Source: a bacterium (GTDB lineage Bacteria; UBP18; UBA7526). Taken from it: 62,354 nucleotides of DNA. The position numbers and the translations under genes were made by a program. The notes under the pieces are model-generated. The model did not search any database, was not told where the DNA came from, and worked only from the letters and a program-made list of their open reading frames with translations. The stretch covers positions 1-62,354 of the forward strand of contig JAUXAI010000003.1 in the NCBI GenBank assembly GCA_030619985.1, in the 5' to 3' direction. Shown piece after piece: positions 563 through 59,090 of this stretch (position 1 is its first letter; each line of letters opens with the position of its first letter).

Positions 563-594
563 CTTTCCCACTTTCCCACTTTCTCACTTTCTCA
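563..594. repeat. Tandem 8-mer CTTTCYCA x4 in the gmhA 5' region
   Basis: ctttccca ctttccca ctttctca ctttctca. Confidence 0.85.
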
Positions 595-617
595 CTCCCC
601 TACTTTTTACTGGAAAT

Positions 618-646
618 AGTATATCACACTTTTAGAATTTTTTCTA
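618..646 (-). promoter_or_regulatory. Putative sigma70 promoter for gmhA
   Basis: Minus strand TAGAAA-17 bp-TATACT with extended -10 TG. Confidence 0.55.
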
Positions 647-763
647 CCCCACACCTTTCTAATATTCACCCAGCACCTTTTACTTGGAAGTATCCTTCTG
701 TAACAGAAAGGTGCTGGGTTCATTTTTTACCTTACTACTTTGAATAGATAAAAGGTGCGGGGT
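646..763. mobile_element. Nested MITE-like elements with ACCC(C/A)GCACCTTT-type terminal inverted repeats
   Basis: Outer TIRs 646-658/751-763 (12/13 match); inner TIRs 668-680/707-719 (13/13) flanked by TC on both sides. Confidence 0.75.
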
Positions 764-1501
764 CCACTCTATCAAGACTGCCCGGGCAGAAAAGATCCCC
801 GCCCGGGAGACCTTGGCCAGAAGAAGAATCTTCTCTGTGGTAGAGAGCCAAGCAGTAGCCTGTCCCTTCCTCTTCGTTTCACCTTCAAGCGTCAGACTCT
901 GAGGAACGAGGATGAAGGCTTGATGATGACCATCCTTAGTATGAATACGCTCCTCTCCTTTAACTTTGAGAGTGAGAAGATAGTTATGCCTTCCACAGTT
1001 TATGGGAACCTGGATCACCTCATCAGTCTTAAGGTTTAGAGTGCGCAGGTAATAGTAAACCGATACTGAATCCTGGACCCTGGGAGGTATCTTTATCTCT
1101 TTCCCTTTGCGATAGGCAATATGCCTCTCCTGATTATAGATAATGACTTCATCCTTCCTATACTTCCCCTCCTCAAGGTGGGCTTCATACCGGTGAGGAT
1201 AGAACTCTTTTGTATCCAGATAGGTCTCCAGCCTATCGTTTATTCTATAGAAGAGGCTGAAAAAGGGAGTGGTCTGGGCAATAACCACTATGTGATATAC
1301 CTCATGCCCATCAAGATCTATTATTTCCTTTATCTCTAAAGTGACATAACCAGCAGTAACACCGAAGGCTTTTATGGCAAAGACCATCCTCTCCCCCACT
1401 TCAAAGGGAGGATTTGATTTGGTCGGTTCTGAAAAAAGATTTACTGGTTTTAATAAAGTAAGAAGTAAAATTAGAACGAATATAGTTTTCTTCTTATTCA
1501 T
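680..1501 (-). CDS. DUF3108-like exported protein
   Basis: Likely start MNKKKTIFVLILLL (signal peptide); PFxVGE motif and QDSVSVYYYLR resemble DUF3108. The longer ORF-track N-terminus is repeat-derived. Confidence 0.7.
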   Translation of the reverse strand: MNKKKTIFVLILLLTLLKPVNLFSEPTKSNPPFEVGERMVFAIKAFGVTAGYVTLEIKEIIDLDGHEVYHIVVIAQTTPFFSLFYRINDRLETYLDTKEFYPHRYEAHLEEGKYRKDEVIIYNQERHIAYRKGKEIKIPPRVQDSVSVYYYLRTLNLKTDEVIQVPINCGRHNYLLTLKVKGEERIHTKDGHHQAFILVPQSLTLEGETKRKGQATAWLSTTEKILLLAKVSRAGIFSARAVLIEWTPHLLSIQSSKVKNEPSTFLLQKDTSK

Positions 1502-1505
1502 CTTT

Positions 1506-1600
1506 ATTCGCGATGATTCGCGTTCCTCTTTATATTCGCGATAATTCGCGTTTTCTTTATTCGCGACTATTCGCATCTTCTCTATTCGCGATGATTCGCG
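1506..1600. repeat. ATTCGCG array, 8 copies in four 10-bp-spaced pairs
   Basis: Copies start at 1506/1516, 1534/1544, 1559/1569 (ATTCGCA), 1584/1594. Confidence 0.9.
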
Positions 1601-2579
1601 TCTTAACTGCAGAAAAAACCTCATCCACAGTTATTAACTTCATACAATCGAGCCTCTTACATTTATGTCTCCAGCATCCCCGACAGGGCAGATCCTTCTC
1701 AATAACTGTATGCCCTTCTCCATAGGGTCCGTTCCTCACAGAGTCTGTTGGCCCGATGAGAGCCACCGTAGGAATATTCAGGGCACAAGCAATATGCAGA
1801 GGTCCCGTTTCTCCCCCAATAAATAATCTACATTTGGAGATAAGGCAGGCAAGTTCTTTTAGGTTCGTCTTGCAAGAAATGATGGGTCTATTCTCTGTTA
1901 TCTTTGCTATTCTATCGATAGAATTTTTATCCCCGGCCCCCCAAAGAAGGATTGCTTTGACTTTTAACTCTTCTATTAGTCGATCCACTAATTCTGCCCA
2001 TCTCTCCTCTGGCCAGAGCTTGGAGGGCCAGCTGGCCCCCGGATGCAGGGCAATTAAGAGATCGCTTGAGGTAATTCCCTTCTCCCTTAAAAAATTAGTG
2101 ATATATTCTCTATTTTCGTGGGATACGGGAATGATAAATTCTTTCTTCTTAACCTCTATCCCTAAAGGGCGAAGGAGGCTTAGGTTCTTATCGATGACGT
2201 GTCTATCCTCTTCTCCTGGAGTAACTCTTTGGTTGAGGAATAGGCGGCTCAACTCTCGACTATTTGCTCTACTGAAGCCGAGCCTCACCTCAGCACCGCT
2301 TACGAAGGTCAAGAAGCCACTTCTAAAAAGACCCTGCAGATCGATAGCTAGATCAAAGTTTAATGAGCGTAGCTTTTTAGCTGTCTTTCTAGGCCCTTCA
2401 TAGCTAATGACCTCATCCAAATGGGGATGGTTGATAATGATATTGGCTATCTGCTTCTTCACTACCCAGGCAATGTAACTTTTAGGAAATTTCTTTCTTA
2501 GGGCACTTAAGACTGGTAGGGTATGAACTACATCCCCAATGGAACTAAGCTTAACAATTAAAATTCTCTTGAAATCCAT
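1557..2579 (-). CDS. waaC: LPS heptosyltransferase (GT9, WaaC-like)
   Basis: RILIVKLSSIGDVVHTLP, DLQGLFRS, HPGASWPSKLWP and ETGPLHIA motifs. Confidence 0.8.
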   Translation of the reverse strand: MDFKRILIVKLSSIGDVVHTLPVLSALRKKFPKSYIAWVVKKQIANIIINHPHLDEVISYEGPRKTAKKLRSLNFDLAIDLQGLFRSGFLTFVSGAEVRLGFSRANSRELSRLFLNQRVTPGEEDRHVIDKNLSLLRPLGIEVKKKEFIIPVSHENREYITNFLREKGITSSDLLIALHPGASWPSKLWPEERWAELVDRLIEELKVKAILLWGAGDKNSIDRIAKITENRPIISCKTNLKELACLISKCRLFIGGETGPLHIACALNIPTVALIGPTDSVRNGPYGEGHTVIEKDLPCRGCWRHKCKRLDCMKLITVDEVFSAVKTRIIANREDANSRE

Positions 2580-2589
2580 ATTTCAACCT

Positions 2590-2832
2590 CAGTAACCAGT
2601 AACCAGTGAACAGTAACTAGAAGAATTAAATTCTAAATCTGTAATAGCCGATAACCAAGAAACAAACATTAAACATTAAACATTAAACAATAACCAATAA
2701 TCAATCATCAATAATCAAACTATTTGGGTATTGAAATTTGGATACTGGGATTTGTTTGGTCATTGTATCTTGTATCTTGGTGTTTGATTATTAGAATTCA
2801 GGACTGTAAACTGTAAACTGGTTACTGTAAAC
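2590..2832. repeat. Long inverted heptamer-repeat element, copy 1 (inverted relative to copies at 33.3 and 57.8 kb)
   Basis: Outer AGTAACC/GGTTACT arms; inner A-rich heptamers (AAACATT, AATAACC) followed by T-rich complements (GTATCTT, GGTGTTT). Confidence 0.85.
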
Positions 2833-2837
2833 TTCTT

Positions 2838-3101
2838 TTACTTTCTATATTCTGGCAGGTTATACATCTTAAACTGCTTATAAACTTTTAATTTCTTCTT
2901 TCCAGAAAGAATATCCTTGAATAATTCATCAAGTTCTTTTACTAAGTCGTTTCTCTGCCTCTTTAATATCAAAAGTTTCTTTTTACATTCTTCGATATGC
3001 TTTTTAGAAACATCCTTTCTCTTCGTCTCTTCCTCCATATGGAAGCATTTCTGTTCAAAGATACTTATCTTATCCACTAAACTTCCGATGGTTTCAGCCA
3101 T
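2838..3101 (-). CDS. DUF4254-like protein, C-terminal half
   Basis: ETIGSLVDKISI...FHM...KVYKQFKMYN resembles the C-terminal part of DUF4254. Confidence 0.7.
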   Translation of the reverse strand: MAETIGSLVDKISIFEQKCFHMEEETKRKDVSKKHIEECKKKLLILKRQRNDLVKELDELFKDILSGKKKLKVYKQFKMYNLPEYRK

Positions 3102-3307
3102 TATTGCTTTCCCTTTTTACTCAAGGCAATAGCACATTCATCAATGGCTTCAATGAGATCGTTCCTTCTTTGATTCAATCTATCGATCCTCCTCTTTGCC
3201 TGAGCAACAACTTTGTCATCTTTACTTCTCGCCTTATCCTCCTCATGCCATAGAGCAATATTGACCTTAGCCAATTCATTCACTAACTGAGCAAATGTCT
3301 TCTTCAT
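3101..3307 (-). CDS. DUF4254-like protein, N-terminal half
   Basis: [12 protein letters not shown]...[19 protein letters not shown]; likely start MKKTF at 3307; TAATG overlap with the downstream ORF. Confidence 0.7.
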
Positions 3308-3309
3308 CT

Positions 3310-3879
3310 TTATCTCTCCTTCATCAAAACCCATTCTACTGCGTGATATAAATCTTCAGCAGTATGATCTGGATTTATTCCTTTATTTTTACTTCTCCTT
3401 CCATAGCCAGTTAAGACTAATATTCCCTTTACCCATACATTCTGGGCCAACCTTATATCATCTACCTTATCTCCAATAACATAGCACCTCTTCAAATCTA
3501 AATTAAATCTTCTCGCTGCTTTTAAGAGCATCCCGGGTTTGGGCTTCCGGCAATTACAGTTCTTCTTATATTGGGGAGAACCAAACTTGGGATGGTGGGG
3601 GCAGTAATAAATTTCATCCAGATGTGCCCCTTCTTTTTTAAGAAGCCTTTTTAATTTGCTATGTATTTTCTTAACTGCTTCTTCAGTAAAATAGCCTCGT
3701 GCCACTCCTGATTGATTAGAAATCACAATGGTCAGAATTCTTTTTTTGTTCAACAGTCTTATTGCTTCTCCAGAGTAAGAAATAAGCCTAAGTTTCTTGG
3801 CATCCTTCAGATAGCCCATCTCTTCTGTAATGGTGCCATCCCGATCCATAAAGACTGCTATTCTATTTCCCTTTGCCAA
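3310..3879 (-). CDS. gmhB: D,D-heptose 1,7-bisphosphate phosphatase
   Basis: DRDGT HAD motif, [14 protein letters not shown]...[15 protein letters not shown]. Confidence 0.93.
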
Positions 3880-7754: not shown

Positions 7755-8872
7755 TCTCTTTTGCTCCCGACTAATTCTGCCAACTTCTTCTCTAAGAATA
7801 GTGCCCTATTCGCCACAGTATCAATCTTTAATTTATGAGAAAGAATCTGTTGACGAGCAGATTCTACTTTAGACTTCACTACTCCCCAGTTATTAATAAG
7901 AAATTGAATCTTTTTTGCTAAAGCCTGAACATCGTTATTGGGTACATACTCCAGGGCATCCCCATAGAGTTCCCTCATATAGGGAACATCAAAGGTAATG
8001 CAGGGCTTTCCCATTAACAGTTCTTCTGCCGGAGGGATTCCAGACCAGATCTGCACTCCAAATATCGATTCCTGAATTACTCGGAATTTCTTCTCTCCGG
8101 CAAATTCTCCTAAGAATTTACATTGCACTTTCTTCTTCCTCGCTAATCTTTTTAGAAATCTCTTCTCTTTCCCCCCACCTATGATAACTAATAGTGGAGG
8201 ATTACTTAATAAACTTAAAGCCTCAATGGTCATATGAATTCTTTTATGAGGGGTAAGGCGGGCAATGGTTATTATCTGGTACCTTTCCTTCGCCTTTTCA
8301 TTGAATAATTTATTCGCTGTCTCTGTTTCCATGAAGGGATAGAAAAAATCGCATTCTACCCTAGTCCCAAGGAATTGTTCCAGGGGTTTCACAAATTCCC
8401 TCCCCGCCAGGGTCCTCATATCAGCCTGCAACCAAGCCTGAAAGATTCGTCTATAATATCTGCTCCATCCAACAGTATCGATCTTGACATTATTATGATA
8501 GCCCCATTCTTTAGAATCTTCTAACCCCACCCGAAAAGGTGGAACCCATTCCGCATGGGAAAGGAGTGGAACTTTAAAGCGCTCCCGAAACAACACTCCT
8601 GCTTCACACACCATCTCCCCAGCACTATAGATCACATCATAGGTATGGGAGGGAAAAGAAAAGACTATCTCTCTATTCACCTTTCCTGAACTCATTGGTA
8701 AACGGTAAATTTCTAATCCCGGCATGCGCTTTAGTTTTCTATACTCTCCATATTTCTCAATTCTAGTAACTACCAAGGTAATCCTATGGCCCAACTTAAG
8801 TAACTCTTCGACTAAGTGAAGGAAGGGTGGTTTAAAACCCACAATAGAATGGCCTAAAAAAAGTATTTTCAT
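7751..8872 (-). CDS. Glycosyltransferase family 4 (divergent)
   Basis: ITIARLTPHKRI...IIGGG...GIPPAEELLMGKPCI, GT-B C-terminal domain. Confidence 0.75.
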   Translation of the reverse strand: MKILFLGHSIVGFKPPFLHLVEELLKLGHRITLVVTRIEKYGEYRKLKRMPGLEIYRLPMSSGKVNREIVFSFPSHTYDVIYSAGEMVCEAGVLFRERFKVPLLSHAEWVPPFRVGLEDSKEWGYHNNVKIDTVGWSRYYRRIFQAWLQADMRTLAGREFVKPLEQFLGTRVECDFFYPFMETETANKLFNEKAKERYQIITIARLTPHKRIHMTIEALSLLSNPPLLVIIGGGKEKRFLKRLARKKKVQCKFLGEFAGEKKFRVIQESIFGVQIWSGIPPAEELLMGKPCITFDVPYMRELYGDALEYVPNNDVQALAKKIQFLINNWGVVKSKVESARQQILSHKLKIDTVANRALFLEKKLAELVGSKRD

Positions 8873-12864: not shown

Positions 12865-14081
12865 CTCTTGTAATGCCTGATCACTTTTCTCACGGCATCC
12901 ATAACATCATTAATATCTTCTTCAGTCAATTTAGTAGACAAGGACAGGGATATCGTTCTATCTGAGATATATTCTGCATTGGGAAAGTCCCCTCGCTTAT
13001 AACCAAACCTCTTCTTGTAATAGGAAGAAAGATGAAGAGCAAGAAAGTGGATGCCGATCCCGATATTCTCTGCCTGCAAAGCAACAGCAAACTGATTTCT
13101 ATCACACTTTAATCTTTCCAACTTTAATAAAATAGTATAGAGATGGCGGGCGTGACGGATATTCTTCTCTTCGATAGGAGTTTCTATCTCTGGAATCTTT
13201 GCGAAGGCCTGATTATAGAGTCTGAAATACTTCTCCCTCATCTTCAGATTCTCTTCCACCCTTTTCAATTGATGAATCCCTAATGCCGCCTGAATATCCA
13301 TCATATTGTACTTATATCCCGGATAGAGAATATCATAGGGAGTGAATCCTTCCTGAGAATATCTCTTCCAGGCATCCTTTGAAAGACCATGGAGCCGTAA
13401 AACCCTTAGTTTTTTAGCCCATTCATCATTATTAGTGGTAAGCATCCCCCCTTCACCAGTAACCACATTCTTTGTGGCATAGAAACTGAAGGCAGTGAGA
13501 TGGCCGATATTTCCAATCTTTTTATTCTTATAGCGGGCTTCTACTGCATGGGCGGCATCCTCAATGACAAAGAGACTATTTTCTTTGGCGATCTTCATAA
13601 TCTCATCCATTCTGCATGGCCTTCCATATAGATGAACAGGGATGATGGCTTTCAGCCGAGTTCGGAGTTCGGAGTTCGGAGTTCGGAGTTTAAGGTAGTC
13701 TTGAATCTTATTAGGGTCAATATTACCGGTCTCTTTCTCCACATCAATAAACACCGGGGTGGCTCCCTGGTGGATGATAACATTTGCTGTCGAAGCAAAG
13801 GTTAAAGGGGAAGTAATCACCTTATCCCCCTTCCCAATCCTAGCAATCTCCAAAGCAAGGTGCAATCCTGCGGTACAGGAGTTCAAGGTAATGGCGTATT
13901 TACATCCGATATAATTCTTGAAATCTTCCTCGAATCTTGCCACTCTGGGCCCAGTGGAGAGCCAACCAGATTTTAAAGTTTTTACTACCTCTTCTATCTC
14001 CTTTTCTCTAATATCTGGTGCTCCAAAGACTAAGAATTTTTTTCTCACCGGCTTTCCCCCGAAAAGGGCCAATTTCTCCAT
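12861..14081 (-). CDS. DegT/DnrJ/EryC1/StrS PLP-dependent sugar aminotransferase
   Basis: SGWLSTGP, IEDAAHA, FSFYATKN (PLP lysine), GYKYNM. Confidence 0.93.
   Translation of the reverse strand: MEKLALFGGKPVRKKFLVFGAPDIREKEIEEVVKTLKSGWLSTGPRVARFEEDFKNYIGCKYAITLNSCTAGLHLALEIARIGKGDKVITSPLTFASTANVIIHQGATPVFIDVEKETGNIDPNKIQDYLKLRTPNSELRTRLKAIIPVHLYGRPCRMDEIMKIAKENSLFVIEDAAHAVEARYKNKKIGNIGHLTAFSFYATKNVVTGEGGMLTTNNDEWAKKLRVLRLHGLSKDAWKRYSQEGFTPYDILYPGYKYNMMDIQAALGIHQLKRVEENLKMREKYFRLYNQAFAKIPEIETPIEEKNIRHARHLYTILLKLERLKCDRNQFAVALQAENIGIGIHFLALHLSSYYKKRFGYKRGDFPNAEYISDRTISLSLSTKLTEEDINDVMDAVRKVIRHYKR
13658..13691. repeat. In-frame heptamer repeat (GAGTTCG)x4 plus a partial copy inside the DegT gene
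   Basis: Encodes KLRTPNSELRT. Confidence 0.92.
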
Positions 14082-15222: not shown

Positions 15223-15343
15223 AGATTCTCACAGATTGTTTACAGATTCACACAGATCACAGATATTGGATGCTTGATCCTTATTCTTGATAGTTTGATC
15301 GCTCGATAGCTACTCTGTTCACCGATCACTGTTCACTGACCAC
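15220..15343. repeat. Composite repeat tract: CACAGAT x5, CTTGAT-like units and CTGTTCA-like heptamers
   Basis: CACAGAT-like copies at 15220, 15230, 15241, 15251, 15258; ctgttca ccgatca ctgttca ctgacca overlaps the stop of the upstream GT. Confidence 0.8.
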
Positions 15344-29085: not shown

Positions 29086-29111
29086 AACAAAGCTCCAAAA
29101 TGGAAGCTATT

Positions 29112-29145
29112 CGTTTACCGTTACCGTTCACCGTTAACCGTAAAC
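29112..29145. repeat. CCGTTAA-type short tandem repeat
   Basis: cgttta ccgtta ccgttca ccgttaa ccgtaaac. Confidence 0.75.
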
Positions 29146-29147
29146 TT

Positions 29148-30386: not shown

Positions 30387-30398
30387 TCTTTACTCCTA

Positions 30399-30528
30399 AG
30401 TAACCAGTGAACAGCTTCGCTGTAGTTCGGTGTAACGGCCACCTCTGGTGGCCTTGAGTTCGGTGTTCGGTGAATTTATTTTTAACTCCGAATTCCGAAC
30501 TGTAAACTCCGAACCGTTAACTGTTAAC
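30399..30528. repeat. Inverted heptamer element (AGTTCGG...CCGAACT) with two small palindromic inserts
   Basis: Inserts acagc-ttc-gctgt (30411-30423) and ggccacc-tct-ggtggcc (30437-30453). Confidence 0.82.
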
Positions 30529-30973: not shown

Positions 30974-31010
30974 TTTCGTTATTTACTTCCTCCTTATTTT
31001 TTTCTCATTT

Positions 31011-31054
31011 ATTCGTGATAATTCGCGTTCTTTTTTAATTCGCGTTTATTCGCG
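31011..31054. repeat. ATTCGYG pairs (two 10-bp-spaced pairs)
   Basis: Copies at 31011/31021 and 31038/31048; overlaps the pgsA stop. Confidence 0.85.
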
Positions 31055-31630: not shown

Positions 31631-31645
31631 GATTATGCCTCACAG

Positions 31646-31718
31646 GGTTACCCAGTTAACCTGTTGGCCAGTTATCCAGTTAAAACCGGCAAACCGGCTC
31701 ACTGGCAACTGGCAAACT
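31646..31718. repeat. Inverted 8-mer element (CCAGTT arm / AACCGGC-AACTGGC arm)
   Basis: Left arm 31646-31681, right arm 31684-31718; same family as 36509-36552. Confidence 0.8.
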
Positions 31719-31739
31719 AAAGAAATTTGTCTTCTGTAT

Positions 31740-33295: not shown

Positions 33296-33314
33296 GTTTC
33301 TGCCTCGCTTTAAT

Positions 33315-33706
33315 AGTTTACAGTAACCAGCGAACAGTAACCAGTAAAACTGTAGATTATTAGAACATCAGATTTGGTAAATTCGAAATTCTAATATTGA
33401 AATTAAGCAAAGCTAATAACCAAGATACAAAACACAGTAACCAAACAGATCCCAATATCCAAATTCAAATGCCCAATGCGCTTCGCTAGCATTGGAGAGA
33501 GCATAAATAATTAAGCATTGCCAAAACAGTTTGGTGATTGGTTATTGGTCATTGATTATTGTTTGTATCTTGTTTCTTGGTGTTTGGTTATTTGTATTCA
33601 TTTCGGATTTCGTGCTTCGGATTTTTGAAATTCTGATATCTGTCCTTCTCCATCTGATATACTGGTAATCTGGTACTCTTTTGCTGTTAACTGGTTACTG
33701 GTTACT
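33315..33706. repeat. Long inverted heptamer-repeat element, copy 2, with a 44-bp central insert
   Basis: Outer CAGTAAC/GTTACTG arms; core near-identical to 57840-58025; insert 33477-33520 flanked by CCAA. Confidence 0.9.
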
Positions 33707-36393: not shown

Positions 36394-36422
36394 CTCCTTT
36401 TAATTGACAAGCCTTTGTTCCT

Positions 36423-36552
36423 TATTAACTTATCAACGTATCAACTTATCGAAGCGGAGCGGAGACCCCGACCCCTCTCTCTCCGCTTGTCGGGGTCAAC
36501 TTTCGATCAACTGGCTAACCGGTGAACCGGCTAACTGGCTAACGGGCTAACC
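36423..36552. repeat. TATCAACT and AACYGGCT 8-mer arrays around a GC-rich structured insert (36448-36507)
   Basis: aagcggag/ctccgctt and gaccccgac/gtcggggtc complementary pairs. Confidence 0.8.
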
Positions 36553-37362: not shown

Positions 37363-37383
37363 GCTTACTCCTTCATAAGATTG

Positions 37384-37500
37384 GGTTAGGGTTAAGTAGT
37401 TAGTTTAGTTGTTGGGTTAGGTAGTTGGTCTTTTTAAAACACCTAACCCTTACCGAACTACTAAACCCACTACCTTACCCTAATCCAACTACGTAACCTG
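37384..37500. repeat. Hexamer-periodic inverted element (GGTTAG/GTAGTT...AACTAC/CTAACC), copy A
   Basis: Highly similar to 45878-45991. Confidence 0.88.
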
Positions 37501-37513
37501 TGGCTACTATTGA

Positions 37514-39616
37514 CTACTTATGTTTCCTGGGTCGTGTTTTTTCCCGTAGGGCTGCCTTTCGGGAGAGGTTAGTCCTTCCCTGGTCATCGATCTCAATGAC
37601 CTTTACCTCCACCTCCTGGCCTTCTTTTAAAACATCCTTCACATTCTTGACAAAGCCCTCTGCTAACTGGGAAACATGGACGAGGCCTTCCTTCCCGGGG
37701 AGGATCTCAACAAAGGCCCCAAAGTTCATGATTCTGGTCACCTTCCCTTTATAGATTTTTCCTACCTCAACCTCTTCTGTGAGATAGTTAATCATATCCA
37801 GGGCAGCCTGAGCCTTGGCCTTATCTGGGGAGGAGATGGATATCTTTCCATCATCATCGATATTCACCTCGGCACCAGTTTCCTCAATGATCCCCTTTAT
37901 CGTCTTACCTCTTGGGCCAATGATACCTCCAATCTTTTCTTGTTTCACATAAGTAACGATAATATGGGGAGCATAGACGGAGATTCCCTCTCTCGGCCGT
38001 GAAATGGCCTGGTTCATCTTATCCAGGATGAAAAGGCGGGTTTTCCTCGCCTGTTCCAAGGCCTCTTTTATCAAGGAAGTGGTGACTCCAGAGGTCTTGA
38101 TATCTAAGTGAAGAGCAGTAATCCCTTCTCTCGTTCCGGCGATCTTAAAGTCCATATCACCCAAGGCATCCTCCACCCCCAAGATATCGGTAAGGAGAGC
38201 ATACTTCTCCCCCTCCATTACTAATCCAATGGCTGCCCCGGCAACCGGGGCTTTAATGGGGGCTCCCGCATCCATTAAAGATAGGCTTGCCCCACAGACA
38301 CTGGCCATGGAAGAGGAGCCATTGGATTCCAGGATATCGGAGACCACCCTTATGGTATAGGGGAACTTATCACTGGGAGGGATGACAGGAAGAAGGGCTT
38401 TCTCTGCTAAAGCGCCGTGGCCAATCTCTCTCCTGCCTGGGCCCCTCAATGGCTTCGTTTCTCCCACACTAAAGGGCGGGAAATTATAGTGAAACATAAA
38501 GGTTTTTCGGAATTCCTTCTCCAGGGCATCAATACGTTGCTCATCCTCTGTAGTTCCCAAAGTAGTAGCCACCAGGGCCTGGGTCTGTCCTCTGGTAAAG
38601 AGGGCACTTCCATGGGCCCTGGGGAGGATTCCTACCTCGCAGGTAATGGGCCTGATCTCGTCCGCTCTTCTCCCATCTGCTCTACGATTCTCATCTAAAA
38701 TGGCCCGGCGCAGAATTTCTTTCACTATCTTGTCTACGACAAATTTGATGTCTTTCTCCTTTTCTGGAAATTCAGTGCTTAAGGCCTCCATAGCTTCATT
38801 CTCAATCTTGCTTAGCGCTTCATCCCTTTTGGTCTTTTCCTTTATCCTATAGGCCTCCTCTAATCTGGAAGTGGATAGTTCTCTCACCCTCTTCTCTATC
38901 TCCTCATCCGGAGCATAGAGGACGATTTCTCTCTTGGGTCTGCCACAGGATTTGATCAACCTTTCCTGAATCTCAACAAGCCTTCTGATGTGCTCTTTGG
39001 CCTTCTCTATCCCTTCTAAAATGGTCTCCTCTGGAACCTCATGGGCTTCAACCTCTATGGTTGCTATCGCACCCTTAGTCCCGACAACTACCATATCCAG
39101 CCTGCTTCTTTCCAATTCCTCATAGGTAGGATTGATGATAAACTCTTCCCCAATCCGTCCCAGGCGCACGGCGCCTACCGGACCACTAAACGGGATATCA
39201 GATATAGAAAGGGCAGCTGAGGCACCGATTATGGATAAGATATCCGGGTCATTCTCCCCATCTGCAGATAGCACGCTCACCGTAATCTGGACCGCATTCC
39301 TGATTCCTTTCGGGAAAAGAGGCCTTAAGGGTCGATCGACTAATCTTCCGGTCAGGATTTCCCAATCCCTTGGCCTCCCTTCTCTCTTAAAGAAGCCCCC
39401 GGGAATCTTCCCCGCAGAATAGGTCTTCTCCCTATAATCAACGGTCAAGGGAAAGAAATCAACATCCTCCCTGGCTTCTTTGGAGGCTACCACAGCCACC
39501 AGGACCACAGTATCCCCATAGCGTACGGTAACCGCACCATCCGCCTGCTTAGCCATCTTGCCAGTTTCAATAGTTAGTTTTCTTCTGGCGATTTCTAATT
39601 CTTCTTTTCTTACCAT
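37514..39616 (-). CDS. pnp: Polyribonucleotide nucleotidyltransferase
   Basis: FFPLTVDYRE, RREIGHGALA, ESNGSSSMAS, KH and S1 domains. Confidence 0.98.
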   Translation of the reverse strand: MVRKEELEIARRKLTIETGKMAKQADGAVTVRYGDTVVLVAVVASKEAREDVDFFPLTVDYREKTYSAGKIPGGFFKREGRPRDWEILTGRLVDRPLRPLFPKGIRNAVQITVSVLSADGENDPDILSIIGASAALSISDIPFSGPVGAVRLGRIGEEFIINPTYEELERSRLDMVVVGTKGAIATIEVEAHEVPEETILEGIEKAKEHIRRLVEIQERLIKSCGRPKREIVLYAPDEEIEKRVRELSTSRLEEAYRIKEKTKRDEALSKIENEAMEALSTEFPEKEKDIKFVVDKIVKEILRRAILDENRRADGRRADEIRPITCEVGILPRAHGSALFTRGQTQALVATTLGTTEDEQRIDALEKEFRKTFMFHYNFPPFSVGETKPLRGPGRREIGHGALAEKALLPVIPPSDKFPYTIRVVSDILESNGSSSMASVCGASLSLMDAGAPIKAPVAGAAIGLVMEGEKYALLTDILGVEDALGDMDFKIAGTREGITALHLDIKTSGVTTSLIKEALEQARKTRLFILDKMNQAISRPREGISVYAPHIIVTYVKQEKIGGIIGPRGKTIKGIIEETGAEVNIDDDGKISISSPDKAKAQAALDMINYLTEEVEVGKIYKGKVTRIMNFGAFVEILPGKEGLVHVSQLAEGFVKNVKDVLKEGQEVEVKVIEIDDQGRTNLSRKAALREKTRPRKHK

Positions 39617-39630
39617 TTCTTCTCCTTTTG

Positions 39631-39724
39631 TAACGCCAAAGCGCTAAACGCTAAAACACAAAAGTTCGCCAAAGCGCAAAAATGATTTGGCGTCTTTGTT
39701 TTAAACTTTGGCGACTTGGCGTTA
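39631..39724. repeat. Inverted CGCCAAAG/CTTTGGCG element between rpsO and pnp
   Basis: Perfect 9-bp ends taacgccaa/ttggcgtta with internal degenerate copies. Confidence 0.82.
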
Positions 39725-39725
39725 A

Positions 39726-39995
39726 TCATTTTCTCAAACCCAGTTCCTGGATAATCTTCTCGTATCTTTTCTTATCCTTATCCTTAAGGTAGCCCAACAG
39801 TCTTCTCCTCTGACCAACCATCTTCAGAAGCCCTCTTCGTGAGTGATGGTCCTTCTTATGAGTCTCAAGATGCTTGGTCAAGGAATTAATCCTCTCTGTG
39901 AGAAGGGCAATCTGCACCTCTGGTGAACCAGTATCCTTCTCGTTTAACCGATACTTAGTGGTAATCTCCTTCTTCTTTTCCTTCTCCAAGACCAT
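39726..39995 (-). CDS. rpsO: 30S ribosomal protein S15
   Basis: [27 protein letters not shown]; ATG at 39995 gives 89 aa with a GGGGG SD-like sequence. Confidence 0.97.
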
Positions 39996-42911: not shown

Positions 42912-42931
42912 ACTTCTTCCACCTCATTAAA

Positions 42932-43078
42932 CGCGAATTTCTTTGGATTGCTTACTGTTTGGGTCTATAAACGCGAATTCTCGCGAATTTATTCGTGTAG
43001 ATTCGCGTCTTCTGTTATTCGTGTCTATTCGTGTTTGTTTATTGCGTCCTTGCTTTTCAGTTCGCGTTGATTCGTGTC
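42932..43078. repeat. Inverted CGCGAAT/ATTCGYG element overlapping the rbfA 3' end
   Basis: Pairs at 42972/42982, 42991/43001, 43017/43027, 43060/43070. Confidence 0.88.
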
Positions 43079-43414: not shown

Positions 43415-43431
43415 ATCGCCTCCCAATTTCC

Positions 43432-43500
43432 CAGTAAGAAGTTAACAGTTTACAGTGTACAGTAAAAAAACTGGTTACTGTTCGCTGGTTACTGGTTACT
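43432..43500. repeat. Inverted CAGTAAC/GTTACTG heptamer element
   Basis: 43470-43494 is identical to 59061-59085 and the reverse complement of 33321-33345. Confidence 0.88.
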
Positions 43501-45817: not shown

Positions 45818-45836
45818 AGTATTCCTCCCTCAATTC

Positions 45837-45991
45837 AGTTGATAAGTTGACAAGTTAATAAGAAAACATCTGGTTACGGTTAGGGTTAAGTTGTTAGTTT
45901 GGTTGTTAGGTTAGGTAGTTGGTCTTTACACACCTTTCCCTTGCCTAACTACCAAACCCACTACCTTACTTTAACCTAACTACATAACCTG
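45837..45991. repeat. AGTTGATA 8-mers (45837-45860) plus hexamer-periodic inverted element copy B (45878-45991)
   Basis: Copy B aligns with 37384-37500; the 8-mers are the reverse complement of the family at 36423-36450. Confidence 0.88.
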
Positions 45992-46000
45992 CGTCGATTA

Positions 46001-47257: not shown

Positions 47258-47273
47258 TCTCTCTTATTCTCCC

Positions 47274-47332
47274 TTCGTGTAGTTTCGTGTGTCATTTTAT
47301 TTATTCTTCTTTACCCTTCGTGTTTATTCGTG
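47274..47332. repeat. TTCGTG pairs (two 10-bp-spaced pairs) overlapping the rimP stop
   Basis: Copies at 47274/47284 and 47317/47327. Confidence 0.75.
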
Positions 47333-49642: not shown

Positions 49643-49668
49643 AATAATCTCCCAATAGTCTCTTTTTC

Positions 49669-49712
49669 GTTGATCAGTTGAGTCAGTTAAGCCCGTTTGG
49701 ACAGTTTGGCCC
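49669..49712. repeat. 3' repeat arm of the four-helix-bundle element (GTCAGTT-like on +)
   Basis: gttgatca gttgagtca gttaagccc gtttggaca gtttggccc. Confidence 0.75.
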
Positions 49713-50064
49713 GTAGATAACGGGTGAGGCCATCTATCAACTTTCTTGTCTTCTCTGCCTGCTGATATACCTTCTCAAATTGTTCTTTGCTAATGTAATT
49801 CTGATCTAAGGCAATGTATAAACAAGATTGAACCTCTCCAGTCGATCTTCTAGCATAGTTTAAAAACCTTATGAATTCTCTATTCGACTGACTAGTGAAT
49901 CCTTCTGCGATATTATTCATTGTTGAAATGGCTGCTCCAGTAGTTTGGCCCTGAAGTCGATAATCCTTAGAAAATAGTTTCTGCTTAACTAGATCGTAAA
50001 CCATCTTTGTTAAAATCCTTGCTTCCTGCCAACACTGTAGATCTTCAAATCTCTTAATCTTCAT
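49687..50064 (-). CDS. Four helix bundle protein (23S rRNA intervening-sequence protein family, Avd-like fold)
   Basis: RFEDLQCWQEA, DYRLQGQ, STMNNIAEG, EFIRFLNYARRSTGEVQSCLYIALDQNYI are characteristic family motifs. Confidence 0.92.
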   Translation of the reverse strand: MKIKRFEDLQCWQEARILTKMVYDLVKQKLFSKDYRLQGQTTGAAISTMNNIAEGFTSQSNREFIRFLNYARRSTGEVQSCLYIALDQNYISKEQFEKVYQQAEKTRKLIDGLTRYLRAKLSKRA

Positions 50065-50077
50065 CCCATCACTTTCT

Positions 50078-50116
50078 TAACTAGCTAAACTGACAAACTG
50101 ACTAAACTGACAAAAC
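50078..50116. repeat. 5' repeat arm of the four-helix-bundle element (AAACTGAC on +)
   Basis: taactagct aaactgac aaactgact aaactgac aaaac; contains the ispG stop. Confidence 0.85.
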
Positions 50117-53655: not shown

Positions 53656-53656
53656 T

Positions 53657-55229: not shown

Positions 55230-55244
55230 CGGACTCCGTTCTTA

Positions 55245-55415
55245 TTATTCTTCTATAATGGCCTCTACTGGGCAGGCCTCCTTACAGGCCCCACACTGGG
55301 TACAGGTCTCTTGGTCGATAGTATACTTTTCATCCACTTCCTTAATGGCTTCTACCGGGCACTCATCGACACATGTCCCACAGCCCACACAGTCCTCAGT
55401 GATTTTAAAAGCCAT
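55245..55415 (-). CDS. 2[4Fe-4S] clostridial-type ferredoxin, 56 aa (missing from the ORF track)
   Basis: Manual translation MAFKITEDCVGCGTCVDECPVEAIKEVDEKYTIDQETCTQCGACKEACPVEAIIEE; two CxxCxxCxxxCP motifs; GGAGG RBS. Confidence 0.95.
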   Translation of the reverse strand: MAFKITEDCVGCGTCVDECPVEAIKEVDEKYTIDQETCTQCGACKEACPVEAIIEE

Positions 55416-55430
55416 CTTCTCCACCTCCTA

Positions 55431-55557
55431 AACGCGAATCAACGCGAACCGTAATGCAAATAAACCTAAATGATACACGCGAATCAACGCGAATCAATTC
55501 GCGAATATTCGCGTCTTAATTATTATAACTATTTAGGTATTCGCGACTATTCGCGTC
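55431..55557. repeat. Inverted CGCGAAT/ATTCGCG element between frr and the ferredoxin gene
   Basis: Pairs at 55433/55443, 55478/55488, 55497/55507, 55539/55549. Confidence 0.9.
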
Positions 55558-55558
55558 C

Positions 55559-56116
55559 TCAGAGTTCGAGGATCTCCTTCTCCTTCTCTTTCAGAACCTG
55601 ATCGATCTTTTTAATATACTTATCAGTAAGTTCCTGAATTTTTTTCAATCCCTTATGATAGTCGTCCTCTGGAATCTCTTTTTTCTTCTCTTTGTTCTTT
55701 AATTCCTCATTCGCTCCCCTCCTTATTTCCCTAATGGATACTCTCCCCTCTTCTGCTCTCTTCTTAACTATCTTGACCAGCTCTTCTCTCCTCTCCTGAG
55801 TAAGGGGTGGGAGGGCAATGCGAATTATTCCCTCTGAAACCTGGGGGGTGAGGCCGAGATCTGAGGCCAGGATGGCCTTATTAACTACGGGGATAATTGA
55901 TTTATCCCAGGGCTGGATAACGATGAGGGTGGGCTGGGGAGTAGAGATAGTGGCCAGATGATTCAGGGGGGTAAGGGTTCCATAATAGTCCACTTTGACT
56001 CCTTCCAGGATACTGGTTGAGGCCCGGCCGGTGCGCATGGTCGCCAAATCCCCTTTAAAGGCCTCAATCGATTTCTTCATTCTCTCTTCCGCTTGACGAT
56101 AGATCTCCTCCATCAT
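55559..56116 (-). CDS. frr: Ribosome recycling factor
   Basis: RTGRAS, VDYYGT.TPL, PPLTQERREEL. Confidence 0.97.
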   Translation of the reverse strand: MMEEIYRQAEERMKKSIEAFKGDLATMRTGRASTSILEGVKVDYYGTLTPLNHLATISTPQPTLIVIQPWDKSIIPVVNKAILASDLGLTPQVSEGIIRIALPPLTQERREELVKIVKKRAEEGRVSIREIRRGANEELKNKEKKKEIPEDDYHKGLKKIQELTDKYIKKIDQVLKEKEKEILEL

Positions 56117-56117
56117 G

Positions 56118-56708
56118 TCACTCCTCCCCCAGCTTATACCTTACAAATCTTCTTACTACAATATTCTCTTTGAACTTGGCCATGACGGAATCCAGATATT
56201 CCCTAATCGTTATCTTCTCATCCTTTATGAAGGGCTGTTCTAAGAGGCAGACCTCTTTGTAAAACTTCTCCATCTTTCCCTTAACAATTTTATCAACTAC
56301 TTTTTTTGGCTTCCCCTTTGCCCCTCCCCTATAGATCTCTTCCTCCTTTCTGACTACCTCTTCTGGCACTTCTTCTCGAATAATGTAAGCAGGATTCAGG
56401 GCAGCGATCTGCATGGCGATATCCTTGGCCAGATCTTTGAACTCCTCCGTCCGGGCCACGAAATCTGTCTGAGAGTTTATCTCTAATAAGACCCCGATCT
56501 TGCCTCCAGCATGGATGTAGGAGTAGATGAGGCCCTCCTTCGTTTCCTTACCCGCCAATCCTTTGGCGTGAGCCAGACCCTTCTTGCGCAATAGCTCCTT
56601 CGCCTTTTTTAAATCTCCCTCTGTCTCCTGTAAGGCCGCCTTACAATCCATGATGGGAGCCAGGGTGGCCTCTCTTAGCTTCTTGACTTGGGCAGCATTA
56701 ATCTTCAC
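56118..56708 (-). CDS. tsf: Elongation factor Ts (short form)
   Basis: VKKLREAT.A.IMDCK, TDFVAR, LEQPFIKD; GTG start. Confidence 0.96.
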   Translation of the reverse strand: MKINAAQVKKLREATLAPIMDCKAALQETEGDLKKAKELLRKKGLAHAKGLAGKETKEGLIYSYIHAGGKIGVLLEINSQTDFVARTEEFKDLAKDIAMQIAALNPAYIIREEVPEEVVRKEEEIYRGGAKGKPKKVVDKIVKGKMEKFYKEVCLLEQPFIKDEKITIREYLDSVMAKFKENIVVRRFVRYKLGEE

Positions 56709-56811
56709 CCCGCCCCTCCTTTTATATTCAAGTAAATAATCTCCATAAAGAAAAAATCTATCATTTCAGGCGTTTTAATCTCGAGATTATTAATTTTACG
56801 AGGGGCGGGGT
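56707..56811. mobile_element. 105-bp MITE-like element with perfect 12-bp TIR ACCCCGCCCCTC and 2-bp TC duplication
   Basis: TIRs 56707-56718/56800-56811; TC at 56705-56706 and 56812-56813; internal palindrome taatctcgagatta (56776-56789). Confidence 0.82.
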
Positions 56812-57750
56812 TCACTTTTTAAAACCTTTCTCTTCATTACCCTGGGTCTTTTTCGACTTCTTCTCTTCTTTCTTTTTCTTTTTTGCGGGTTTCTCTGCGA
56901 CCTCTGCGGTTGCAGGCTTTCCCTCTTTGGGCTTCGCCTTTTTCGCAGGTTTAGCAACTTTCTCCTCAGGTTTGGGTATCTCTTCTACCTTTTTAGGAAT
57001 CTTCTCTAGTTGTTCGGGAATCTCTTCTTCTACTTTTGCAGGAATCTCTTCTTCTGCCTCTTTCAAAATTTCCGGCCTTCCCTCCAGGATAGCATCCGCC
57101 ATCTTGGTGCACACCAGAGTAATGGCCCGAATGGCATCATCATTCCCCGGGATGATGTAATCCACCCCCGTAGGGTCACAATTAGTATCTACTAAGGCAA
57201 CGACCGGTATCTTTAACTTGTTGGCTTCCTTAAGAGCGATTCTTTCCTTATAGACATCGATCAGGATTAGAGCGCCAGGGAGACCATCCATCCCCTTTAT
57301 TCCTCCCAGAGCACGCCCTAGCTTCTCCTTTTCTCTTAATTTCTTAAGGGTTTCCTTTTTGGTCAGGGAAGAGAACCCTCCTTCCTTCTCTTGAGCCTCT
57401 AATCTCTTCAGGTATTCGATATTCTTCTTTATGGTCTGAAAATTGGTGAGTGTCCCTCCCAGCCATCTCTCCGTGACATAGGGCATCCCGCAGCGCTTTG
57501 TCTGGCTAAGGATGGCATCCTTTGCCTGCCTCTTGGTCCCCACAAAGAGGAGGGTTCCCCCTTCCTTTGCCAATTCCTTAACGAACTTACAGGCCTCTTC
57601 TAACTTCCTCAGAGTCTTCTGAAGATCGATGATATGAATGCCATTCCTCGCCCCAAAGATATATTCCTTCATCCTGGGATTCCACCTCTTGGTCTGATGG
57701 CCAAAGTGCATCCCAGCCTCCAAGAGCTCTTTCATAGAGACAACTGCCAA
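56812..57750 (-). CDS. rpsB: 30S ribosomal protein S2 with Lys/Glu/Pro-rich tail
   Basis: [35 protein letters not shown]; TTG start. Confidence 0.98.
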
Positions 57751-57780
57751 ATTACACCCCCCTCTGCCGCCTTTGGCGGA

Positions 57781-58078
57781 GAAATTCCAAATACCAATAT
57801 CTAAACATCAAGATACAAGAGACAATAACCAAACAAATTCCAATATCCAAATTTAAATACCCAATGCGCTTCGCTAGCATTGGAGAGAGCATAAATAAAA
57901 TAATTAAGCATTGCCAAAACAGTTTGGTGATTGGTTATTGGTCATTGAGTATTGTTTGCCCATCCTCCGCAGTAGCAGTGCAACTGCTACGGAGGATGGA
58001 TATCTTGTTTCTTGGTGTTTGGTTATTAATCGTTTTTGGTTAGAGTTTCGGATTTCTTATTTGAAATTTGTGATTTAT
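57781..58078. repeat. Long inverted heptamer-repeat element, copy 3, in the rpsB 5' region, with two inserts
   Basis: Core shared with 33452-33590; inserts at 57865-57913 and 57959-58000. Confidence 0.9.
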
Positions 58079-58080
58079 TA

Positions 58081-58109
58081 AGTATACCATTTTCTCTTTT
58101 ATTTAGCAA
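58081..58109 (-). promoter_or_regulatory. Putative rpsB promoter
   Basis: TTGCTA-17 bp-TATACT with extended -10 TG. Confidence 0.65.
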
Positions 58110-58115
58110 AAAAAT

Positions 58116-59003
58116 TTAGGCTCTGGGATGAGCCTTATCATATACCCTCTTTAATCTCTCAGTTGTGAGATGGGTATAGACCTGGGTAGTGGATAGAGAG
58201 GCATGGCCCAGTAATTCCTGAATACTTCGCAAATCCGCCCCAGCATCGAGTAGGTGGGTGGCGAAGGAGTGCCTCAGGGTATGGGGGCTTATCTTCTGGG
58301 AGAGGGAGGCTTTCTTGATATACTTATCTAAAAGCCTCCTGATACTCCTTGCCGATATTCGTGCACCGGATTTATTTAAAAAGAGTCCCCTCTCCCCTTC
58401 TCCTGGATGAAGGGTCTCTCTTCTCCTTAAATAATTATGGAGGGCTTGGGTAGCCTCTGTGCCAAAGGGGGCCAGGCGCTCCTTCCCTCCCTTACCCCAT
58501 ATCTTGGTCACCCCTCCCAAGAGATCGACATCATTCACATTCAGTCCCACCAGTTCACTCACCCTCATTCCCGTAGCATAGAGGAGCTCTAAGATGGCCC
58601 GGTCGCGCAGGCCCAGGATGCCCTTCTCGTCTGGAGACTCGAGAAGGGCAAATACCTCTGAAAGCGCCAGGAATTTGGGAAGTTTTTTGGCGATTTTGGG
58701 GGTCCTCGTTCCCAGGGCAGGGTTGATCTCCAGATACTCCTCCCTACAGAGAAATCTAAAAAAGGAGCGCAGGGTGGCTAATTTCCTGGCCATGGTGGCG
58801 TGGGAAAGCCCCCTCCTCTGTAAGGAAGCTAAGAAGCGCCTAATAGTCAAGTGATCGATATATCTCACTTTAAGAGGTATTTTTTCTTTCTTCAAAAAAT
58901 TCAAGAAGTCATTGAGGTCAGCAGAGTAACTCTTCAGGGTATGAGGAGAGACGTTCTTCTCTCCTTTTAGATAATTGCTAAACTTGGCAATATATTCTTC
59001 CAT
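58116..59003 (-). CDS. xerC: Tyrosine recombinase XerC
   Basis: RDRAILELLYATGMRVSEL, SPHTLRHSFATHLL, LLGHASLSTTQVY; next to topA. Confidence 0.9.
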   Translation of the reverse strand: MEEYIAKFSNYLKGEKNVSPHTLKSYSADLNDFLNFLKKEKIPLKVRYIDHLTIRRFLASLQRRGLSHATMARKLATLRSFFRFLCREEYLEINPALGTRTPKIAKKLPKFLALSEVFALLESPDEKGILGLRDRAILELLYATGMRVSELVGLNVNDVDLLGGVTKIWGKGGKERLAPFGTEATQALHNYLRRRETLHPGEGERGLFLNKSGARISARSIRRLLDKYIKKASLSQKISPHTLRHSFATHLLDAGADLRSIQELLGHASLSTTQVYTHLTTERLKRVYDKAHPRA

Positions 59004-59025
59004 TTGCTCCTCACTTCGTTCGGAT

Positions 59026-59090
59026 AGTAACCAGTAACCAGGTTACAGTGAATAGAAAAGACTGGTTACTGTTCGCTGGTTACTGTAAAC
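59026..59090. repeat. Inverted CAGTAAC/GTTACTG heptamer element between topA and xerC
   Basis: 59061-59090 is the exact reverse complement of 33316-33345. Confidence 0.88.

Follow-up and report, generated by a model that had tools for sequence, protein, structure and literature searches.

Hairpins with tandem-repeat arms in the operon spacers of a UBP18 bacterium resemble the intervening sequences of 23S rRNA and are probably mobile

Introduction

Intervening sequences (IVSs) of bacterial 23S rRNA are insertions in which the tetraloop of a helix has been exchanged for an extended stem-loop (PMC4990558). The IVS of Coxiella is a selfish element of 428 nt whose inverted repeats at the two ends pair into a 28-bp stem that RNase III cuts within; it carries an S23p open reading frame (ORF), with three tandem heptamers just upstream whose number varies between strains (PMC4990558). 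Here, we describe hairpin elements of a comparable build that lie between protein genes in a 62,354-nt stretch of DNA (hereafter the window, contig C54 of a draft genome) from a bacterium of the candidate phylum UBP18. We hold with moderate confidence that small palindromic elements of IVS type, probably mobile, have expanded across the lineage, and that the window is part of this expansion.

The elements of the window share with the IVSs of Coxiella and Leptospira a stem-loop with complementary termini of about 28 bp, a PF05635/S23p ORF in the loop, tandem heptamers beside this ORF that vary in copy number between strains, and an insertion that replaces the loop of an existing helix (PMC4990558). 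Like them, IVSs are regarded as selfish and are not known to have a mechanism of movement (PMC4990558). The long stem built from complementary termini reaches up to 44 predicted pairs here. On the other hand, IVSs sit in 23S rRNA whereas all elements of the window lie between protein genes, and our elements differ in being mostly ORF-less, in numbering hundreds per genome, in drawing on about 200 units with periods of 7-10 and in forming nested layers. 23S rRNA IVSs are the closest known kind; the elements, which lie in the messenger spacers of a candidate phylum and are associated with S23p, have every anatomical feature of an IVS save its location (PMC4990558).

Other described systems are more distant. 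PF05635 is also the family of Avd, the accessory protein of diversity-generating retroelements (PMC10053308); such a retroelement was ruled out by the lack of any reverse transcriptase match in the six genomes of the family studied here (drafts 53-93% complete). Xanthomonas genomes contain intergenic GGGAATC arrays which, as here, vary in length and sequence among close relatives, and 70-75 cases per genome consist of two convergent arrays with the potential to form a stem-loop. Unlike here, they are built from a single G-rich, quadruplex-forming unit at conserved positions, and neither a cargo gene nor nesting is reported for them (PMC4692102). Direct repeats of TAACTGA occur in marine Beggiatoaceae, cyanobacteria and Bacteroidetes, with no spreading mechanism known to the source. 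They resemble our arrays in forming intergenic sets of two to six heptamers, split by related heptamers and sometimes placed inside ORFs, and in being patchy across phyla; the Beggiatoaceae repeats differ in having one unit, in being almost all direct (a single inverted case) and in ending just before start codons (PMC4679880). Membership in the TAACTGA family was ruled out here, since the genome contains 0 tandem dimers of that unit and the arms are inverted.

Cyanobacterial tandem heptamers, the short tandemly repeated repetitive sequences, comprise a few fixed units per genome. Mazel in 1990 and Elhai in 2008 reportedly described intergenic tandem heptamers in heterocystous cyanobacteria with small dispersed hairpin repeats nested inside them. 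The many-copy intergenic heptamers with nested small hairpins recall our elements, which nevertheless show far more unit families, octamers as common as heptamers and a non-cyanobacterial host. Repetitive extragenic palindromes (REP) and their hairpin-forming inverted doublets (REPINs) are short dispersed intergenic palindromes with a RAYT (Y1) transposase. They too are dispersed, intergenic and palindromic, but here the arms are tandem arrays and many unrelated families coexist; membership in this class was ruled out because a Y1 gene was found in 0/6 family genomes (drafts 53-93% complete). Terminal inverted repeats, a feature of miniature inverted-repeat transposable elements, are present. 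A literature search largely confined to non-subscription journals brought up no account of a four-helix-bundle gene enclosed by tandem-repeat arms anywhere but in rRNA, and none of repeats in UBP18.

The draft genome consists of 1.25 Mb in 91 contigs with 44.6% G+C and is 83.65% complete, for a bacterium of about 1.5 Mb. Its family includes five further genomes of 0.8-1.4 Mb, and the remaining genomes of the collection are related at domain level only; all genomes compared are metagenome-assembled drafts. The closest relatives of its InfB are 86-95% identical and metagenome-assembled, one of them labelled UBP18, and the next matches drop to about 55%. A cyanobacterial host, an idea prompted by the heptamers, was ruled out by the non-cyanobacterial gene content and by the UBP18 nearest relatives. 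The window encodes lipopolysaccharide heptosyltransferases, a large glycosyltransferase cluster and the core operons recA, pnp-rpsO-ribF-truB-nrnA-rbfA-infB-nusA-rimP, proS, ispG-rseP-dxr-cdsA-uppS-frr-tsf-rpsB and xerC-topA-dprA. A same-genus genome, G002 (the congener), is syntenic with the whole window, most proteins being 80-97% identical, and proteins are only about 75-86% identical between genera of the family. ORFs were called by a simple greedy longest-ORF rule and cover 90.4% of the DNA, so that all gap counts are approximate.

Results

Inverted tandem arrays in the spacers

The original prediction, drawn from the letters of the window alone, was of degenerate 6-10 bp tandem repeats that fill most of the larger intergenic gaps, often as an arm followed by its reverse complement. 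The repeats are real. Across the genome, 412 merged arrays of period 6-10 reach a Tandem Repeats Finder (TRF) score of at least 40, compared with 2-6 in three dinucleotide shuffles (1033 against 158-176 at a score of at least 30, and 162 against 0 at 50). For the window, TRF returned 80 rows, chiefly of period 7-10 and where they had been predicted. Tandem or closely spaced units of 7-10 nt are found in 18 of its 24 non-ORF gaps of at least 60 nt, in agreement with the predicted occupancy, and the other six gaps (3102, 9822, 10554, 16469, 47867 and 56709) are repeat-free. Despite the high ORF coverage, 282/412 arrays lie mostly outside ORFs. An array of CGAACTC that had been taken as intergenic turned out to sit inside a gene (13658-13690).

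The most frequent periods among the TRF rows of the genome are 7, with 371 rows, and 8, with 315. The self-match of intergenic DNA is likewise maximal at lags 7 (0.314) and 8 (0.309) and their harmonics, over a baseline of about 0.27, and coding DNA shows a period of 3 only. Arms commonly hold about four units (~28-30 nt per arm), with a median array of 26 nt; arrays of period 7 with 2, 3, 4 and 5 copies number 111, 69, 131 and 36. We did not see a preferred 4-nt core common to the units, and no Rfam model matched the window at gathering thresholds. The commonest 12-mer class of the genome (55 copies on many contigs), which contains GGTGCGGGG, and a 24-mer class of CGCAGAT-type decamers (about 10 copies) represent additional repeat families.

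The orientation of neighbouring arrays is not random. We compared 400 pairs of adjacent arrays no more than 400 nt apart: the two members are reverse complements of each other in 72 pairs and direct repeats in 28, against 13 and 13 for random pairs. All ten loci named in advance as arm plus complement fold more stably than their 30-60 dinucleotide shuffles, with z-scores that run from -2.26 to -6.51 for the gene strand and from -3.95 to -6.86 for its complement. Three repeat-free gaps gave z of -0.16 to -1.06, and some arrays have no partner arm: the single-arm arrays at 15223, 30974, 35775 and 47258 do not fold (z -0.3 to +1.4). Strong folding extends beyond the named loci, since 198 gaps, the first in a set of 547 that measure 50-300 nt, have a mean z of -2.42 (55% below -2, 27% below -4) and 155 length-matched coding controls a mean of -0.19 (6.5% and 1.3%, respectively). 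Overall, a hairpin of at least 14 pairs is present in 368/639 gaps (453 hairpins in total). Where both arms are periodic, the period is the same in the two arms in 62/72 hairpins. The picture of inverted tandem arms therefore holds for a core set and is looser elsewhere, as detailed below.

Dispersed and nested copies

The elements are palindromic, dispersed, nested and, when duplicated, bounded by their arms. With blastn (at least 24 nt, E <=1e-4), 438/645 gaps match another gap, and 403 of them fall into one connected cluster. One imperfect 24-mer, in which heptamer variants follow each other in a fixed order, has 16 copies in the genome, always within the same hairpin of about 65 nt, whose arms are conserved but non-identical and whose loop is variable (~4-11 nt). 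Relative to the flanking genes, 10 copies lie in sense and 6 in antisense orientation. Twelve of the 16 have short variable loops, whereas the other four carry a long insert at the loop position; in three of these four, one being the element at 33296-33701, the far arm lies 183-365 nt downstream.

Allowing for up to two mismatches, the same 24-mer is multi-copy in 6/6 family genomes (27, 4, 29, 9, 9 and 11 hits), occurs once each in 2/395 other genomes, and its reversed control gives 0 hits in the family. That it is kept in many copies in a family whose proteins are only about 75-86% identical suggests ongoing copying or recognition by a conserved factor. The exact 24-mer was also found at 26 loci of public metagenome contigs, of which 21 match contigs of this genome at 74-99.9% nucleotide identity and five do not. 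Two of these five come from the contigs L148 and L158 (67% and 55% G+C, no nucleotide similarity to the genome), which contain long arrays of the same alternating heptamer pair followed by the inverted arm. The repeat family is thus present in unrelated organisms as well.

PF05635 genes between arms

We found ten PF05635 (TIGR02436, S23p/Avd-like) four-helix-bundle genes in the genome. The suspicion that such genes lie between arms proved well founded: 9-10 of the 10 are enclosed by inverted tandem-repeat arms, several within two or three layers. The gene of the window (49687-50064) matches TIGR02436 with E 8e-29 and PDB entry 2gsc with E 3e-10; it is absent from the same spacer in the congener and in the relative L058, where plain hairpins of other units are found.

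As proteins, the ten are old paralogues that share 27-60% identity; a single pair, at 98%, stands apart. A cassette of arms plus gene is also found at C69:33217. The two genes of the 98% pair lie on different contigs, and their DNA is 91% identical over exactly 450 nt, from outer arm border to outer arm border, beyond which the sequences are unrelated. Changes within the cassette are mostly synonymous, so that the protein is under selection and the copied unit is arms plus gene.

PF05635 genes are present in 5/5 other family genomes and in 8/25 genomes of other families. We inspected 24 loci outside this genome. For the 14 PF05635 genes viewed in other phyla, the flanks of five pair with z below -2 against mononucleotide shuffles (-8.3, -7.3, -4.9, -4.5 and -2.2) and those of two more stand at -1.99, with units of 7-9 nt plain to see; the gene-between-arms layout is thus not peculiar to this lineage. 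Within the family, array densities of 6.5, 6.4, 3.3, 2.8, 1.2 and 0.28 per 10 kb go with 8, 9, 10, 10, 2 and 4 PF05635 matches. In the sparsest genome, G003, three of the four matches are broken or partial. Based on six related genomes, there is a hint that array density follows the number of intact PF05635 genes.

Elements of the window

The elements are listed below by position, with the strand where one was assigned and fold z-scores as available; G002 is the congener.

1495-1610: ATTCGCG-type units with a 25-nt super-period (4 copies) at the junction of two genes; z -1.02.
2580-2837: composite layered hairpin with outer arms of CAGTAAC-type heptamers and inner arms of other 7-nt units; the fold of 2590-2832 has z -4.74 sense and -6.86 antisense.
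13658-13690, reverse strand: perfect heptamer array (4.7 copies, 100% matches) inside a PseC-like aminotransferase gene.
15223-15325: CACAGAT-type and GTGAACA-type arrays with no partner arm; z +1.41; copy number differs from G002.
29086-29147: single CGTTWAC-type heptamer array with a small hairpin beside it; z -2.80; G002 carries a different, 130-nt hairpin in this spacer.
30387-30523: hairpin with TTCGGAG/ACCGAAC-type arms enclosing a small GC-rich inner hairpin, cinA/pgpA spacer; z -4.54; G002 has a different two-layer element.
30974-31045: spaced direct repeats of ATTCGCG-type units, no fold; z -0.33.
31631-31739: octamer hairpin with GCCAGTT-type and AACTGG-type arms; z -4.27; replaced in G002 and in one related strain.
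33296-33701: layered element of 406 nt whose outermost arms are the dispersed CAGTAAC element, with at least three more arm layers and an apical hairpin inward of them; z -3.33/-6.81; 37 blastn partners among other gaps, the highest count.
36394-36546: two octamer arrays, of AACYGGCT type and TATCAACT type, around a GC-rich central hairpin; z -2.66.
37363-37513: long hairpin of 44 predicted pairs with GGTTAG-like units, pnp/uppP spacer; z -4.34; by alignment a paralogue of 45872-45995.
39617-39725: hairpin with CGCCAAAG-type arms, rpsO/pnp spacer; z -3.97.
42912-43024: ATTCGCG-type units, in part a hairpin, rbfA/nrnA spacer; z -2.00; unrelated sequence in G002.
43427-43500: copy of the ~65-nt dispersed CAGTAAC hairpin element, one of the 16 copies of the dispersed 24-mer; z -2.26 sense, -5.13 antisense.
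45818-46000: second GGTTAG-type long hairpin and a TATCAACT-type octamer array, nusA/infB spacer; z -2.73; a different hairpin in G002.
47258-47323: a CTTCGTGT-type unit repeated directly, in three copies with spacing between them, no fold; z +0.62; the spacer is 29 nt and repeat-free in L003 and L010 and holds a 262-nt hairpin in L058.
49643-50101, reverse strand: cassette with the PF05635/TIGR02436 gene (49687-50064) between an upstream arm of GTCAGTTT-type units (50065-50101) and a downstream arm (49643-49686); the arms pair.
55430-55558: ACGCGAAT/ATTCGCG units that form a hairpin, in the spacer of frr and a small ferredoxin-like ORF; z -4.15; the G002 hairpin is built of a different unit.
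57751-58115: layered element of 365 nt whose apical core is common with 33296-33701, the core having two occurrences in the genome, both within the window; z -6.51; unrelated sequence in G002.
59004-59107: copy of the dispersed CAGTAAC hairpin element, topA/xerC spacer; z -4.34; the G002 hairpin uses GTAACAA-type units instead.

A small GC-rich hairpin of about 41 nt (57959-57999) is nested in the element at 57751-58115. In the congener it occurs in a different element and locus, the spacer downstream of recA, and it represents a second, smaller class of dispersed hairpin. The rpsB/tsf spacer (56709-56811) holds a long-range hairpin with a 10-bp GC clamp and no tandem units (z -3.55); by boundary estimate, the congener has no spacer at this place.

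Some features of the gene layout were recorded in passing. Co-orientation is extreme, with 61/63 ORFs of the window on one strand and 1049/1148 neighbouring ORF pairs on the same strand genome-wide, and both GC skew and AT skew are negative over all 62 kb. The repeat-free "gap" at 3102 is occupied by a conserved ORF of 68 residues on the reverse strand (3101-3307), upstream of which the congener is longer by about 170 bases, among them a short inverted pair. An uncalled reverse-strand ORF of 56 residues (55245-55415), with two CxxCxxCxxxCP motifs of the 2x[4Fe-4S] ferredoxin type, is conserved in the congener; it has repeat hairpins on both sides, whose units differ between the two genomes.

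Turnover between relatives

Gain, loss and replacement of the elements proceed at a far higher pace than the divergence of the genes beside them. We compared 48 orthologous spacers of the window and the congener, 20 of which have a hairpin of at least 14 bp in at least one genome. The hairpin is found in both genomes at 9 of the 20, in the window only at 6 and in the congener only at 5. Moreover, only 2/9 of the hairpins present in both are homologous, those at 39617-39725 (0.84 identity) and 37363-37513 (0.87). The ispG/proS spacer has three different units in three genomes, with the final 30 nt before proS conserved, and several spacers measure 0-30 nt in one genome and 140-260 nt in another. 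In the layered elements at 2580-2837 and 33296-33701, the outer arm layers are common with the congener while the inner layers and the centre differ, as expected from apical insertion or replacement.

Whole elements are also exchanged between natural strains, which we compared using contigs of four public metagenome runs. In related strains, 98 nt at 39627-39726 are exchanged for 86 other letters, with at least 255 letters matching on either side. At 37373-37548, 140 letters stand in place of 174 nt, and at 31024-31031, 102 letters in place of 6 nt; the flanks are preserved at all three sites. One apparent empty site, at 33344-33684, was not counted as an excision because one side is covered by only 23 letters and because the 11 letters that bridge it are identical to the loop in a copy elsewhere in the genome.

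Elements of other designs were noted in the same comparison. The ribF/rpsO spacers of L003 (15705-15927) and L002 (5712-6187) contain two or three tandem non-heptamer units of about 75-95 nt, each followed by an identical 9-nt AT-rich motif; the corresponding spacer of the window is only 20 nt. L003 also carries, at 7876-8112 and 13668-13867, a dispersed structured element (about 120 nt) in which outer arms of heptamers surround GC-rich inner hairpins; it is missing from both corresponding spacers of the window.

Movement, slippage or transposition

It had been proposed that different units sharing one architecture point to a dedicated generating or spreading mechanism rather than to independent slippage. 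Our data support the spreading part, because identical imperfect copies are found at many loci, because a cassette has been duplicated exactly to its arm borders, because inner layers differ between congeners and because whole hairpins are replaced in related strains. A dedicated generator, on the other hand, is not established, and slippage also occurs.

Several results weigh against an expansion of mobile elements. No Y1 transposase and no reverse transcriptase (RVT_1) was found in 6/6 family genomes, and neither TnpB nor DDE_Tnp_1 in this genome, the search having covered these four families in drafts 53-93% complete, from which repeats often drop out during assembly. We recognised no target-site duplication in the flanks of the 16 copies of the 24-mer and established no clean empty site among the sites compared. 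The 197 distinct consensus units among 420 arrays are hard to reconcile with a single sequence-specific transposase. By a strict threshold, both arms are periodic in only 72/453 gap hairpins, one arm in 80 and none in 301. G003 has 9 hits of the 24-mer yet few arrays. As for the PF05635 protein, its presence shows no link to array density across phyla (60-kb samples, 12 genomes): the six sampled PF05635-bearing genomes of other phyla have 0-0.83 arrays per 10 kb, with 2.3 in one biased sample. Likewise, arm sequence is not predicted by protein similarity (Spearman 0.08, p 0.11, 435 pairs, by a weak k-mer-sharing test). Finally, the perfect array at 13658-13690 amounts to an in-frame insertion of 27 nt (9 residues) relative to the congener's orthologue, which, together with the copy-number differences between congeners, indicates that local slippage builds arrays without any movement.

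One could go further and propose a purely local origin, in which polymerase slippage by 7-8 nt and intrastrand template switching would make and homogenise the inverted arms, with no movement between loci. The in-gene array, the differing copy numbers of congeners at the same array (e.g. 15223-15325), the diversity of units and the fruitless search for Y1, TnpB and DDE_Tnp_1 all agree with such an origin, as do stem mismatches that track the purine bias of the strand and not RNA pairing rules (see below). Yet it would have to produce an identical order of imperfect unit variants at 16 loci and in all six family genomes, a cassette of arms plus gene duplicated over 450 nt on a second contig, sequence shared with another gap in 438/645 gaps, and the presence or absence of whole hairpins at orthologous spacers. 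We therefore consider a purely local origin unlikely.

Alternatively, the elements could be ordinary miniature inverted-repeat or REPIN-like elements moved by conventional transposases that were lost in assembly or binning. Dispersed copies with terminal inverted arms would fit, and the lack of any insertion sequence in drafts that are 53-93% complete may be an assembly artefact. However, no Y1/RAYT gene was found in 6/6 family genomes, and dozens of unrelated arms would call for a large number of transposases in so small a genome (about 1.5 Mb). What the elements carry is consistently a four-helix-bundle gene and not a transposase remnant, and no target duplication was seen. Conventional transposition is, in our opinion, very improbable. 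We thus retain the reading of an expansion of IVS-like elements, in which movement of whole arm-to-arm units would act together with slippage inside the arms.

Placement in operons and strand of the fold

The elements are placed regularly with respect to genes. Of the 547 gaps, 491 lie between co-directional genes, and in 64 hairpins whose arms are periodic the median distance is 7 nt from the stop codon to the beginning of the 5' arm and 28 nt from the end of the 3' arm to the next start. Intrinsic terminators were considered and rejected, as only 4/64 of these hairpins have at least 5 T in the next 8 nt. The genome encodes RNase III (C22:6768-7154). Excision by this enzyme has been demonstrated for IVSs (PMC4990558), and an analogous processing of the stems described here is conceivable; a look-up of RNA sequencing runs gave none that contains the window.

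Such a placement would also be expected if the hairpins were primarily selected RNA elements, serving between cistrons as RNase III sites or as blocks to 3' exonucleases and so setting relative cistron stability, with a drifting sequence and a maintained structure. The strong folding, the location of most gaps between co-directional genes and the presence of both RNase III and polynucleotide phosphorylase genes speak for this possibility. So does the rpsO/pnp spacer, which retains a hairpin in the window, L003 and L002 even though the inner arms of L002 differ (L010 has no spacer there).

The strand of the fold argues otherwise. In 70 stringent inverted repeats, defined at DNA level and located between co-directional genes, transition mismatches in the stems that would still pair as G:U in the sense RNA number 82, against 124 that pair as G:U in the antisense only and leave A:C in the sense (p 0.004). 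Stem mismatches are purine-rich on the sense strand in general, and at 8/10 named loci the antisense strand folds equally well or better. The mismatch counts thus show no sign of selection on the sense RNA; the stems seem to decay under a strand compositional bias and not to be tuned for the messenger. Covariation in the GGTTAG-type hairpin was uninformative, with a double change in 1/44 pairs and three sequences only. Furthermore, selected sites would hardly be retained in both congeners at only 9/20 hairpin spacers, be replaced in some relatives by hairpin-free spacers of 10-30 nt, be almost wanting from G003 of the same family, which is nearly array-free, or lie in both orientations relative to genes (10 sense, 6 antisense). 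We regard selection for an RNA function as an improbable primary cause. A role in mRNA processing is nevertheless plausible by analogy with IVS excision, although the strand test disfavours it as the reason why the hairpins persist.

Discussion

Considering the above results, we favour the following model of an IVS-like element. It is a stem-loop with each arm built as a degenerate tandem array of some 7-10 nt unit, and it occupies short spacers between co-directional genes, a few bases past the stop codon, while sparing the next ribosome-binding site. The apical loops of older copies contain newer ones, whence layered hairpins of up to 400 nt, and a minority have an S23p/Avd-like PF05635 gene at the apex. 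The elements may move as units that reach from one arm to the other and may prefer hairpin loops as targets. Within the arms, replication slippage also adds or removes units locally. By analogy with IVS stems, the stems may be cut in transcripts by the RNase III of the genome, and operon transcripts would then be segmented at the elements.

We found no 23S gene in this assembly and no IVS inside a 23S gene of the family, where the sole gene recovered, that of G004, has arrays outside only. These arrays lie just beyond both ends of the gene (contig L066, 4600-4661 and 1336-1390), which spans 3017 nt against a model of 2925 positions.

A bolder hypothesis is that IVSs are the rRNA-resident tip of a much larger, cross-phylum class of mobile elements that target hairpin loops and have short tandem repeats as arms. 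The product of their only recurrent gene, the S23p/Avd-like pentamer, would then act in trans by binding the arms and stimulating copying or insertion, with no known transposase or reverse transcriptase involved, and gene-less derivatives would fill most operon spacers of this lineage. We offer this hypothesis tentatively and think it unlikely.

Three loose ends meet in these elements: the origin and movement of IVSs, the role of the very widespread S23p/PF05635 proteins outside diversity-generating retroelements, and the over-representation and patchy occurrence of tandem heptamers across distant phyla. The genome offers hundreds of elements in about 1.5 Mb, among them intact cassettes, gene-less derivatives and nested insertions, together with congeners and strains for comparison. 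The elements also break assemblies, and they may be mistaken for regulatory RNAs or CRISPR-like repeats. If RNase III does cut the stems, most operons of this bacterium would be transcribed whole and then chopped at selfish insertions, which would be an unusual organisation of gene expression.

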